Source: Eledone cirrhosa (lineage: Eukaryota). From it: DNA of 64,000 nucleotides. Positions 12,277 to 47,832 of this stretch are shown here, in pieces; position 1 is the first letter of the stretch; each line of letters begins with the position of its first letter. A program made the position numbers and the translations under genes. A model generated the notes under the pieces. The model did not search any database and was not told the DNA's origin. It was given only the letters and a program-made list of their open reading frames with translations. The DNA lies in contig OZ024751.1 of NCBI GenBank assembly GCA_964016885.1, forward strand, positions 20,646,001-20,710,000, written 5' to 3'.

Positions 12277-12480
12277 GTTTAGCGAGGTTTTTTATATGAA
12301 ATCGTGTGTCGAAACAAATATTGTTATACTTGGGGAGGGTCATATTTGTGTAATATTGCCAGAATTAATAACAGAACACACTCACTGTTTGGTTGGCGAA
12401 AACCAACCAAACAGTGAGTGTGTTCTGTTATTAATTCTGGCAATATTACACAAATATGACCCTCCCCAAGTATAACAATA
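12277..12480 (-). mobile_element. PLE-end family B miniature (tail + perfect 78-bp hairpin)
   Basis: Arms 12319-12396 and 12403-12480 are exact reverse complements. Tail and arm end match the reverse complement of ~37615-37685 of the GIY-YIG-bearing element. Confidence 0.88.
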
Positions 12481-12493
12481 TATATATATATAT

Positions 12494-12632
12494 TTCTAGA
12501 AATAGCCGTCGAAACGGCTTGAGCTCTGCTGTCGGGCGTCATACTTTTTCCTATTACTCACTCTACTACCCTAAGTATTGAGTACTCTGGTGCGTTATGG
12601 TCCATCTGGTTCCTTACCACAATTCCTTCGTT
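12494..12632 (+). mobile_element. PLE-end family A copy (no left arm)
   Basis: AGAAATAGCCGTCGAAACGGCTTGAGCTCTGCTGTC plus tail. Confidence 0.85.
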
Positions 12633-12764
12633 ATATATATATATATATATATATATATATATATATGTATATATATATATATGTATATATATATATATAT
12701 ATATATATATATATATATATATATGTATATATATATATATATGTATGTATATATATATATATAT

Positions 12765-13141
12765 ATAAAATATTAAACAAATAATGAATAAAACAATGAA
12801 ACAGTTCCTTATATTAAACAAAAAAAGTTCATTATTTAACGATCGTTTCTAGGATATATATGTGTTAGAATTGGCATGCATATTCAATATGCATGCCAAT
12901 TCTAACACATATATATCCTAGAAACGATCGTTAAATAATGAACTTTTTTTGTTTAATATAAGGAACTGTTTCATTGTTTTATTCATTATTTGTTTAATAT
13001 TTTATCTTGACTCTGTATTCCGTTTATCTTTCACCGAAAGTGATTTTTCATTACATCTCTTCTTTCCATGATATCCGGAATACATTGAGTTCTTCATACG
13101 GATTGGACACTACCGTAAACTCTTGGTAGATTTATCTACAT
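12765..13141 (+). mobile_element. PLE-end family C: 241-bp palindrome + tail
   Basis: Palindrome 12765-13005 centred on 12885. HHR 3' half GAAAC-GATC-GTT at 12921-12932. Unique tail 13006-13141. Confidence 0.85.
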
Positions 13142-13480
13142 AATATATATATATATATACATATATATATACATATATATATATATATACATATATATAT
13201 ATATATATACATATATATATATATATATATATATATATATTATATATATATATATATATATATACATACATATATATATATATATGTATATATATACATG
13301 TATATATATATATATATACATATATATATATATATATATATATATATATATATATATATACATATATATACATATATATATATATATATATATATATATA
13401 TATATATATATATATATATATATATATATATATATATATATATATATATATGTATGTATATATATATATATATATATAAA

Positions 13481-13998
13481 TGTGCCAGCAGCCTTCAGCT
13501 TTTGACCGTATACGTATATGGAGGGTTCATTGAAAACTTTATCCTAAGCAGGTTGGTACATGACGACAGTCTTCTTAAGTCCTAAAGCACTGCACGCATT
13601 GGAAAAAGAATCCATAAGGCGTTTCATGTCACTCTGGGAGTGTGCAAAGAGATCACAATCATCTGCATATAAAAATTCTCTGATCAAGGTACCTTAGTGT
13701 TGGAAGTGAGACGCCTAAGGTTAAACATCTTGCCGGAAGTGCGATATCTGAGATAGATACCCTGTTGACAATCCCTGAAGGCCATGAAGAACATCATTGC
13801 AAATTACAAGGTAAACAAAGTTGGTGCAGGTATATCACCTTGCTTGACACCATTTTCAACCGAGATTGGCTCAGACAGTTTACCTCAAACATTCACCCAT
13901 GCCTGCATGTCATCGTGGAAGAGTTTCAGAATGTTCACAAACTTTTCAAGACAGCCCAATCTCTCCAAAATAACCCACAAAGCTTTCCGATTAACGGT
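13481..13998 (-). pseudogene. RTE-clade LINE reverse transcriptase fragment (decayed)
   Basis: Minus translation DTVNRKALWVILERLGC...NGVKQGDIPAPTLF...IREFLYADDCDLFAHS, with stops and a frameshift. Contains the QG and YADD RT motifs. Confidence 0.93.
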
Positions 13999-14384
13999 GT
14001 CATACATACATATGGGTGTGTATGATATGATTGGAGACCCTGTCATTAAAACACCCGAAAAACCTCTTCTGGTCTGCAACTTTGTAGGAGCCTATCTAAT
14101 ACTACAATAGATAAGAGCTCTAAATTTAATTTTTTTTTTCTTTTATTAAATATATCTTTCATAACAACATCAACAACACAACAACAAAGATATTGGCACA
14201 ACATTTTTTCTTGTATTTTCTCGGATATAAAGTAAAAAATGTGAGTCATCTTTCTTTCATTGTTATTCCTCACACAAGACATTCCTTATTGATTGCCAAC
14301 GAAAACAAACAAAATATAACATAATAAAAACAGTAAATTACACCTAAACAGTTTAGCATGAAACATTTTAGTGGTTGAAATTGT

Positions 14385-45325: not shown

Positions 45326-45371
45326 ATATATATATATATATACACATACATATACATATCTACAAAAGTAT

Positions 45372-46200
45372 ACACCAACCGACTAACCAGCCAGTCCACC
45401 TACCAACCAACCAACCAACCATGCCAATAATCTATACAGATACATATCGACAAAAGTATACACCAACCAACATTCCAGCCAGCCAGCCAGCCATCTATCC
45501 AATAACCAACTGCCAGCCAACCAACCATCAAACCAACCAACCAGCTAGCAAGTCATTAAACTAGCCAATTAACTAGCCAACCATCCAATCAGCCAACTAA
45601 CCAATCAACCAACCAACCATCCAGCCGACCAATTACTTGTCATCGAAGGAGCCGACCAACCAACCATCCAACAAACCAGCCAACCGTCCAACAAACCAGC
45701 CAACCAGCCAACAAACCAGCCAACCATCCAACCAACCAGCCAACCAACTAGCCGACCAACCAACCAACCAGCCAACCAACCAAATAACCAACCAACCAAC
45801 CAATCAATCAGCCAACCAACCAGCCAGCCAACCAACCAACTAACCAGCCAACCAACTAGCCGACCAACCAACCAACCAGCCAACCAACCAACCAAATAAC
45901 CAACCAACCAACCAACCGACTGACTGACCAGCCAGCCAACCATCCAACCAACAAATCAGCCAACCATCCATCCAACCATTCGCTGACTAGCCAGCCAACT
46001 AACCAGCGTACCAGCCAACCACTCACCAAACACCAACCAACCAACCACCCAACTCACCACCCCATCGTACACCAACCATTGCCCCAATCAGCCAACTAAC
46101 CAGCGGACCAGCCAACCACTCACCTAACGCTAACTAGCCACCCACCAACCACCCCACTCACCAACCATCCCCCAACCATCCAACCATCCCTCAACCCCAC
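45372..46200. repeat. Degenerate (CCAA/CCAG)n tetranucleotide array
   Basis: Direct reading. Confidence 0.92.
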
Positions 46201-46299
46201 ACCTACTTCACCGCTGGCTGTGTACTTAAAAACACTGACTTTTAGCACATTTAATGTTAATTGCTTCAGATATCAATGGTGTACTGTGTTGGTGTGTAT

Positions 46300-46870
46300 A
46301 CATACATACACACACACACATATATATATATATATATATATAATTTATACATACATATATACATACATACACACACACACATATATATATATATATATAA
46401 TTTATACATACATATATACATACATACACACACACACATATATATATATATATATATATATAATTTATACATACATATATACATACATACACACACACAC
46501 ATATATATATATATAATTTATACATACATATATACATACATACACACACACACACATATATACATATAATTCATACACACATATATACATACACACATAT
46601 ATATATATATATATATATATATATATATATATATATATATATATGTGTGTGTGTGTATGTATGTATATATATATATATATATATATATATATATATATAT
46701 ATACACATATACATACATACAGACACAGACATATATATATATATATATAATTCATACATACATATATACATACATACATATATATATATATATATATATA
46801 TATATACATACATACATACACATATATATATATAATTCATACATACATATATACATATATATACATATAT
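46300..46870. repeat. Higher-order ~55-65-bp repeat built from TA/CA microsatellites
   Basis: TAATT(T/C)ATACA marker recurs seven times. Confidence 0.85.
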
Positions 46871-47242
46871 ATATATATATATACACACACACACACACAC
46901 ACACACACACGTATACACACACATATATGTACATATGTTCTGTTTCATCATTTAATGTTTAAGATATCAGAGAATTAATATCGATGTAGTATTGTGAAGG
47001 CGCGTGGCTTTGAGGTTAGTGTGTGTGGCTGACAAACTAATGATTGTGAGTTCGATTCCTTGCGACGCGTATCTATAAAAAATGTACGTTCAAACATACG
47101 TACATATATACGCATGTACGTATGGGCATACATATACAAACATGTATATATACATATACAAATATGTATATTATGTATGTTTGTATATACAGGTACACAT
47201 ATATATATATATATATATATGTGTGTGTGTGTGTGTGCGTGT

Positions 47243-47422
47243 GTCCCAGATTCAATCGAGGGTAACCACAGTAAGTAAGGTACTCAATACATAGCAGAGT
47301 ATAAATATTTAATATAGAAATAGGTTCTACAGGACTAGAACTGTTTCATTCGAAGGAAATCATCAGGTTTTCCTGGTGATTTCCTTCGAATGAAACAGTT
47401 CTAGTCTGTAGAAGCCATTTCT
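47243..47422 (-). mobile_element. PLE-end family F copy with both HHR core boxes
   Basis: Minus CTGATGA-TTTCCTTCGAAT-GAAAC at 47343-47366. The fold-back turn (GGTTTTCC) lies just 5' of the core. Confidence 0.78.
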
Positions 47423-47478
47423 TTCTCTCTCTCTCTCTCTCTCTCTATATATATATATATATATATATATATATATAT

Positions 47479-47832
47479 AAAGGATAACAAAATATCGTTA
47501 TAGGTAATCCAGTTAGAGGTTGTGAATACTTCTTATCATGGATAGTTTTAGCGTACGGCGTTGTTTGATTCAACAAGAGGTTTACGTAGATGACGAGTTT
47601 ATGATTTCACTTGTATTCCTATGTAAGTTTATCTTGGAGTAATAAAATTGAAAAAGTGGAGAATAACAGGGTCAACAGTACAAAAAAGGGGATTTATTTA
47701 CAGTCTAACAATTGTTACACTGGTAAAGATGTCAGCAATTTTTAGACAACTTTATCAGTGAAACAATTGTTAGACTGTAAATAAATCTCCTTTTTTGTAC
47801 TCTTGAACATGTTATTCTCCACTTTTTCAATT
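47479..47832 (-). mobile_element. PLE-end family H: tail + 88-bp imperfect inverted arms
   Basis: Arms 47646-47733 and 47745-47832. HHR 3' half GAAAC-AATT-GTT at 47760-47771. Confidence 0.78.

Follow-up and report, generated by a model that had tools for sequence, protein, structure and literature searches.

Short palindromes of Penelope-like elements in Eledone cirrhosa end at one family-specific base, probably as products of twin priming on a single RNA

Penelope-like elements (PLEs) are described as having, besides a 5'-truncated copy in inverted orientation, a tail that can be at either end, and the consulted part of that description names the origin of the inverted repeats and of the tail as an open question (PMC8557442). 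Self-priming was published as a source of PLE palindromes in 2013 (PMC3846280). A purified PLE protein, predicted to be a dimer, was later found to cut and extend both DNA strands from two internal start sites flanking the tail, ribozyme cleavage being unnecessary (PMC11167929). Here we analyse 64,000 nucleotides of Eledone cirrhosa (GenBank assembly GCA_964016885.1, contig OZ024751.1, positions 20,646,001 to 20,710,000, forward strand), the whole of which is called the window below, together with sequences drawn from the same genome (labelled L001-L373). The window holds palindromes that appear by their sequence to be PLE-derived, as short insertions in (TA)n, and whose arm ends pile up, in families A, C, D and F, at one base specific to each family, called the wall and numbered +1. 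We consider it probable that they arose by twin priming on one RNA: both complementary DNAs (cDNAs) would have halted where their template begins, at a 5' end that is likely capped, before being end-joined. The PLE tail and inverted copy are known in outline; on the limited evidence of a literature search that had subscription papers outside its scope, paired priming with a stop at the RNA 5' end was not found, nor was twin priming or strong stop found applied to PLE inverted repeats.

The Hydra-clade PLEs, in the part of PMC8557442 consulted, share with the parents of families A, C, D and G one open reading frame (ORF) below 3 kb, RW[RK] and DKT motifs, a CxCX5C linker, a C-terminal nuclease, hammerheads and insertion in (TA)n. 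Unlike in that description, the copies found here are mostly palindromes of 120-460 bp made only of the pseudo-long terminal repeat (pLTR) and ending at one base, with tails of ~70-140 nt instead of 30-40; the text consulted describes no comparable wall, although its supplementary family lists may hold these families. The anole element Poseidon likewise has two 3' ends flanking the tail, an AT-rich target, both strands extended and uncleaved RNA used, but the putative start sites here precede the ATG, unlike in Poseidon (PMC11167929). Penelope palindromes of Adineta vaga show the same head-to-head inverted pLTRs, palindromic junctions and optional tail; the model proposed for them is self-priming on an antisense template (PMC3846280), whereas the present data favour two sense-templated cDNAs. 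In L1 twin priming, too, as given in the part of PMC11702581 consulted, both break ends prime on one RNA, microhomology joins the products and an extra G marks the cap, but where the second primer anneals inside the RNA is a matter of chance and there is hardly any overlap between the two parts. In the present case the start sites of both cDNAs would be fixed and the stretch copied would be the same for both, which, unlike in L1, gives a palindrome. Retroviral minus-strand strong-stop DNA is primed internally near the RNA 5' end and is a short cDNA ending at the cap. In the reading proposed here, unlike in the retroviral case, the target DNA primes, and does so twice, and the product is integrated with no jump to the 3' end.

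The genome is 3.0 Gb long with abundant (TA)n, and tail-anchored exact patterns occur at 7,461, 3,965 and 8,361 places for three subfamilies of family A and at 15,745 (F), 4,262 (G), 8,933 (D) and 5,619 (C) places for other families. Family letters were assigned to the families of a first-pass annotation of the window by coordinates, that annotation having given no definitions of its letters (F and G correspond to "G" and "I" in our script labels). Family anchors found 748 arms in 371 sequences totalling 1.88 Mb. After excluding loci chosen for their junction pattern (L001-030, L071-085, L126-140), duplicates, extension scores <8 and anchors <=120 nt from a sequence start, we retained 519 arms and 136 head-to-head pairs. 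With few parents retained for family G, its arm ends (n=99) do not enter the wall counts; the 136 pairs still include 11 from G.

Turn points mapped per family, over ~1.6 Mb of this genome, were strongly non-uniform: in each family the 5' ends of the arms accumulate at a single base of its own, preceded by a near-empty stretch, and a second group consists of long read-through copies. Of 230 A arms, 163 end in the 16-nt wall bin (-7 to +8), 5 in the 87-nt upstream bin (-94 to -8), 17 beyond it and 45 further inside. The corresponding numbers are 58, 2, 11 and 17 for F (n=88), 19, 4, 10 and 11 for C (n=44), and 23, 6, 16 and 15 for D (n=60). Each long copy was used as its own reference, by which two mirror arms of A (L150, L215) were wrongly scored as read-through; with this corrected, the A upstream bin holds 7 arms, not 5. 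Arms for which no partner was detected end at the same wall, and none of the 50 D junctions among the matches listed (of 2,081) exceeds it by 2 nt or more. Restriction site-associated DNA sequencing (RAD-seq) reads from three other samples of the species, all from one study, run into (TA)n at both A 3' ends and contain opposite-strand joints at L150:1460/1461 in A (+1 = 1460) and at L235:1423-1429 in F (+1 = 1421); their depth drops about tenfold or more over each of these two walls. One contig pair of another organism also starts at the F wall, which is too little to count. Spread of a single self-propagating founder palindrome was considered and rejected, three A subfamilies each having long parents and varied junctions at the same wall.

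Several features suggest that the wall is a transcription start within the pLTR, as in D. virilis Penelope, where the consulted part of PMC2377424 places both promoter and start site. TATA-like words lie at -30 in F parents (TATAAATA) and at -29 in A (TATTTAAA; range in A -29 to -31), and an initiator-like YYA/YCA stands at +1 in A, C, D, F and G, with G in one F parent. An extra G marks capped full-length L1 inserts (PMC11702581, consulted in part); here a G precedes +1 in 24 of 51 arms ending there, compared with 30 of 160 control ends (p 1.6e-4), and, once bases explicable by the mirror were removed, in 5 of 7 compared with 7 of 41 (p 0.007). The listed D junctions, counted by hand, comprise 23 perfect palindromes sharing four terminal bases and 6 sharing two; 16 have a non-genomic G before +1 (two of them on both arms) and 5 are of other kinds, i.e. 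the G is present in 16 of the 21 non-perfect ones. Long D copies have C at that base in 13/13, counted by eye. A dataset search for RNA with the A pLTR listed none, which has no bearing on expression.

The junctions point to two cDNAs per insertion. A tailed arm faces a tail-less one in 131 of the 136 pairs, at least one tail-plus-tail pair being a false tail call (window 20787); the Poseidon study neither pairs two sites per insertion nor treats the inverted junction (PMC11167929). The tailed arm is the longer in 48 of these 131 pairs and the tail-less arm in 47 (in L032 by >1 kb), with 36 equal; A arms of the two types reach +1/+2 in 25 and 31 cases. Overlap (50), blunt joining (17) and inserts (69) all occur, the inserts often being copies of nearby arm sequence or oligo-A. 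The centre is self-complementary over 12 nt, with no loop, in 13/136 pairs, and in D 29 of 50 junctions among the matches listed form palindromes with zero loop, their centre being the RNA start, which is self-complementary. In 3 of 30 loci from a biased search (L001, L020, L027), A is joined head to head with an unrelated PLE at one fixed partner end. The partner belongs to a PLE family that has a hammerhead but no name, and the A subfamily differs in each of the three loci. L010 and L040 were rejected as further cross-family joins because of recombination at a shared GAAAC and a (TA)n run between the parts. Of 64 A pairs, 58 have the same subfamily word in both arms (27% expected), and the partner of a long arm is long in 8 loci and short in 3; together these argue for one RNA per pair. 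Read from genomic footprints only, the pairs are what two independently ended cDNAs, copied from one RNA and end-joined, would leave. The signs of snap-back, namely a natural loop kept and a tailed arm never shorter, were found in a class of ~4% only.

In the mechanism we propose, the GIY-YIG nuclease would cut both (TA)n strands and a protein dimer would prime one cDNA per DNA end, at two internal start sites, the stretch between which would be the tail. Both cDNAs would run 60-300 nt to the cap, often adding a C opposite it, as in retroviral strong-stop DNA, and end joining of the blunt, microhomology or templated-insertion kind would then fuse their 3' ends. The long copies in which both arms extend beyond the wall would come from read-through RNA. 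We give even chances to the broader proposition that every endonuclease-bearing PLE insertion is such a two-cDNA event, the dimer using each start site once, one at either end of a single break, and on one RNA.

Several points weigh against this mechanism. The start site is deduced from genomic sequence. Since +1 was picked after the pile-up had been seen, the initiator and TATA matches are post hoc, and the TATA word at -30 is absent in C, D and G; the strict G test rests on 7 arms. The RAD-seq depth drops are confounded by AATT cut sites in A and by upstream subfamily divergence in F. In 45 of 230 A arms the end lies at least 9 nt inside the wall, which requires an early stop or trimming. 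Cross-family joins number 0 among the 136 unbiased pairs, and subfamily agreement and paired arm lengths are likewise predicted by snap-back. In the purified system the start site is the same on both DNA strands and has no homology to the target (PMC11167929), whereas here the two arm types are strictly paired and each end has 2-3 nt in common with (TA)n. Finally, G ends could not be binned with the poor parents at hand, B, E and H copies are too few, and anchored detection overlooks very short arms.

Within the window, masked self-BLAST recovered the inverted repeats of the palindromes at E 1e-15 to 1e-174, far above chance, so that those reported in the first-pass annotation are real. Its stereotyped form was also upheld, as was its attribution to PLEs: a unique tail is present on one arm only, its counterpart breaking off before the tail in (TA)n or a related microsatellite. 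The copies are as follows (coordinates in the window, strand).
1648..1840, minus: family A palindrome, beyond the range covered at first pass
12069..12224, plus: family A palindrome; the mirror arm, without tail, is followed by the turn at GAAA (12105-12108) and the tailed arm
12277..12481, minus: B-miniature palindrome; tail 12277-12317, 79-bp arms 12318-12396 and 12403-12481, spacer 12397-12402; the family's hammerhead, ~130 nt 5' of the turn, is not included
12495..12631, plus: family A tailed arm without mirror, its 5' end at most ~5 nt from the family wall
12765..13142, plus: family C palindrome with arms of 120 bp around a 1-nt centre (12885); short copy that turns ~95 nt 3' of the C wall, within helix II
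17905..18346, minus: family D palindrome; 164-bp arms, 33-nt spacer with templated repeat; tail-less arm to +1 (18172), tailed arm to +12, hammerhead core kept in both arms
20745..20927, plus: family A palindrome; tailed arm starts at +1 (20790), with G before it
20957..21415, minus: family E palindrome; 123-bp arms, 33-nt spacer, CUGAUGA in both arms
25204..25380, plus: family F copy, decayed; turn 25252-25255 in the helix II loop
32355..32554, minus: family A palindrome; both arms end at +1 (32492, 32497), 4-nt insert
32640..32813, minus: family A palindrome, divergent subfamily
35666..35836, minus: family A palindrome, divergent subfamily; the longer arm is the tailed one
36627..37683, plus: long B copy; the inverted arm (36627-36904) has no tail, and the 5'-truncated body (36905-37683) holds the GIY-YIG nuclease to ~37215, a hammerhead near 37445-37490 and the tail
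38172..38629, plus: family G palindrome; 184-bp arms (38172-38548), 9-nt spacer, turn ~70 nt 5' of the hammerhead core
38755..38945, minus: family A palindrome; turn 38888-38893
38968..39103, plus: family F copy; tail-less arm far longer than the tailed one
47245..47422, minus: family F palindrome; turn 47368-47371 just 5' of CUGAUGA, near the F wall
47481..47832, minus: family H palindrome; 88-bp arms, spacer 47734-47744
49474..49664, minus: family A palindrome, divergent subfamily; 1-nt centre 49606
51310..51478, plus: family A palindrome; tail-less arm to +2, tailed arm only to +28
62388..62576, plus: family A palindrome; tailed arm starts at +1 (62439)

Our arm lengths of 79, 120, 164, 123, 184 and 88 bp differ by 0-6 bp from those first reported (78, 120, 164, 123, 178 and 88 bp). 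In the A copy at 51310 it is the tail-less arm that is longer. The turn, placed just 5' of GAAA for family A at first pass, lies at GAAA itself in the copy at 12069. The B miniature and the long B copy had been treated as one family; they are different families with only ~70 terminal nt in common. At 35453-35722 a 57-bp piece of A tail lies tail-to-tail with a full A copy over one (TA)n run. An Rfam scan of the window gave no hammerhead among the matches listed (150 of 452); these were sub-threshold hairpin hits, mostly to microRNA models, on (TA)n and palindromes, and were discarded. The window also contains short tandem arrays of a ~190-200-bp repeat (3625-4214, 19171-20382, 28183-29031, 39441-39922, 57829-58294) with tRNA-promoter-like boxes, labelled by eye as like a short interspersed nuclear element, which interrupts the PLE copies L032, L040, L288 and L333 as well. 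A ~600-bp dispersed repeat is present three times (5876-6478, 42838-43388, 49726-50323; 87-98% alike, partly (TA)n-flanked), tandem arrays with units of 46 bp and ~32/64 bp lie at 29481-29867 and 48352-48844, and positions 1958-2157 are a 200-base N run.

By the motif marks listed in the consulted part of PMC8557442, families A, C, D and G are assigned from their sequences to the Hydra clade. Stop-free frames of 786 aa (A, L371), 830 aa (C, L372) and 738 aa (D, L373) contain YRDD and a C-terminal YIG-type domain, recognised by eye. The A ORF is intact (2.2 kb) and those of C and D are near-complete, each a single ORF below 3 kb with reverse transcriptase (RT) and C-terminal nuclease; the G parent is known as a 566-aa part. 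HSDKT, with DKT instead of DKG, and RLRWR, RVRWR or RLRWI are found in A, C and D, in a region outside the G fragment. The cysteine motifs are CNCPDRSIC, CNLC and CKH in A and CNCRNKTNC, CRLC and CNH in C, and the CxCX5C linker is also found in D and G. The other Hydra marks are present too, i.e. CxxC and CxH around conserved E and N and no CCHH, as are (TA)n insertion and a pLTR hammerhead in all four families. Pfam gave nothing relevant for the Hydra-type ORFs of L371, L372 and L373. Long stop-free ORFs of this type lie in L371:4848-8030 (4848 being the position of the A wall), L372:5986-8921 and L373, and L371 looks complete. This full A element consists of an inverted tailed arm, a partial copy, a pLTR, the tail, an ATG at 5079, the ORF to 7235 and a 3' pLTR that finishes at the tail-less end. 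The tails of C and D likewise run into ORFs (L372, L373). As the tail leads into the ORF in the A, C and D parents, the miniatures correspond to the pLTR-plus-tail region ahead of it; in A the outer palindrome ends lie ~55 and ~135 nt behind the wall, ahead of the ATG. The long B copy matches PF01541 (GIY-YIG; E 1.8e-5, above cut-off), and for this family CIDKKCITC and C..C..H..H are seen in L055 and RT sequence upstream in L032, L039 and L055. With its C-terminal GIY-YIG, CX2-5CxxC linker and CCHH, family B appears to be a Neptune/Nematis-type PLE. Families E, F, H and the B miniature resemble these in tail, inverted arm, (TA)n and hammerhead and are probable PLE derivatives; no parent ORF was seen beside F.

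The A hammerhead, by sequence a predicted type I fold that scores no better than shuffles (z -0.49), has the core UUGANAA, with a U3-A8 pair replacing C3-G8, or CUGAGAA, and a 54-nt helix II. The core is seen in the A parents L044, L114, L150, L171, L191, L215 and L222. It was the CUGANGA box that A had been said to lose, but 21 long A copies show UUGANAA or CUGAGAA in its place; a search of A parents for canonical CUGANGA (51 places) returned only junction look-alikes. With the putative start site within helix II, only read-through RNA could form the A ribozyme. In L235:1421-1470 (F) and L372 near 5988 (C) the putative start site is the start of helix I, and copies still end at +1. A start at helix I would place the whole hammerhead at the RNA 5' end in F and C, where it would remove the cap if active. 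A non-LTR retrozyme origin was rejected: the consulted part of 10.64898/2026.07.22.740005 requires head-to-tail tandem units with an intact hammerhead, and here the units are head-to-head and the A copies lack the core. At L235:1407-1484, reads of the three samples show a retrozyme-like head-to-tail repeat of a 74-77-nt hammerhead-bearing F unit.

Among alternatives to twin priming, one has a tail-primed cDNA reaching the capped 5' end and snapping back by chance microhomology, the nuclease then trimming the mirror at the second site and later deletions randomising the centre. This would account for the wall, the extra G, the subfamily agreement and the strict tail/no-tail pairing, and snap-back after full-length cDNA has been seen with R2 proteins (PMC11371274, consulted in part). 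We nevertheless regard it as unlikely. A snap-back mirror cannot carry +1 or the extra G, whereas tail-less arms reach +1/+2 as often as tailed ones and the two D junctions noted above have the cap G on both arms. Nor can snap-back leave the tail-less arm longer than the tailed one, and zero-loop centres and cross-family joins require two ends.

Twin priming could also be retained if the wall marked a splice acceptor, a stop caused by a bound protein or a site of RNA processing. The A and F walls are pyrimidine-rich with AG, resembling a 3' splice site, and the D. virilis intron extends to the 5' border of helix I (PMC4209133, consulted in part), where the C and F walls lie. However, the AG is missing at the C, D and G walls, no upstream exon word recurs in the 63 A and 14 F arms ending at +1 to +3, and 38 A arms continue 1-7 nt into the genomic upstream sequence, while the extra G and the TATA words suit a start site. 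Ribozyme cleavage as the origin of the wall is not supported either, just 1 of 90 tail-anchored A arms starting at the cut site (L181). This variant is slightly more doubtful than cDNA-end snap-back.

The first-pass annotation had proposed that the growing cDNA folds back onto a stem already present, often helix II, and that this stem would fix the truncation point. Arm ends do fall inside helix II in 193 of 213 A cases, and the turn was rightly placed there in most A copies, in C at 12885 and in F at 25252-25255, and probably in H (judged on L065, one likely parent). In D, E, G at 38172 and F at 47368-47371 the turn instead lies 5' of CUGANGA and the box is in both arms, with one letter altered in one arm at 38172 and at 47245. 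The turns cluster at the family-specific 5' wall and not at stems. Family A alone has its wall within helix II (script numbering: core at -43 and GAAA at +18); the F and C walls are at helix I, and the D wall precedes the hammerhead core by 69 nt. Helix II holds 16 of 77 arm ends in F and 2 of 44 in D, with 0 of 28 among paired D arms. In C it holds 10 of 34 over its 116 nt, compared with 19 in the 16-nt wall; most C arms traverse helix II without turning. Even in A only 3 ends lie in its 5' 29 nt, and its natural loop is kept in 0 of 50 A junctions among the matches listed (the apical loop in 1 of 50 in another A set); the A mirror arm copies loop sequence that is not present in the natural 5' strand. 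The GGTTGG/CCAACC hairpin of the B miniature had been taken as pre-existing, but 0 of 17 other family copies have GGTTGG in the 40 nt before CCAACC, and the hairpin was created by the junction itself. Turns on a natural hairpin do exist, on the 6-bp stem around GAAA and not on helix II: 557 places (~4%), compared with 14,346 where the palindromes pass it and both arms reach helix II. Of these turns, 42 of 50 among the matches listed keep a 4-nt loop identical to the natural one or one change away, although annealing of two ends over 6 bp explains them equally well. Snap-back on a natural stem thus explains at most ~4%; as the main route it is largely refuted, and as an account of the whole we hold it to be improbable. 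The hammerhead is not what sets the turn, and the putative A start site would lie inside helix II by happenstance.

Very improbable, in our judgement, is integration of a hairpin made by antisense RNA self-priming at its 3' end. It has been proposed for head-to-head PLE palindromes and intron retention (PMC3846280), but it offers no reason for a sense-strand G at -1, for sense TATA words or for either arm being the longer, and later in vitro work showed priming on a sense template, at two sites (PMC11167929). An assembly artefact is scarcely credible: (TA)n palindromes are hard to assemble, but there are thousands of places with varied junctions, their arms differ by mutations, and raw reads of three other samples have strand-switch joints at the same positions.

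The thousands of junctions in this genome separate the models of PLE insertion and give sharp predictions for the existing in vitro system, namely a fixed start site, one tail per pair and a cap G on either arm. If twin priming on one RNA holds, the tail, the inverted pLTR and the latter's occurrence at either end would all follow from a single rule, and the integrated palindromes would map the transcription start of each family to a single base. With start sites near the mRNA 5' end, most events would abort, each genome gaining tens of thousands of double strong-stop palindromes. Many dispersed hairpins that are nearly perfect, a large class, would then be dead-end products of autonomous PLEs, and not miniature inverted-repeat transposable elements or microRNA genes, and these palindromes may be sources of double-stranded RNA.

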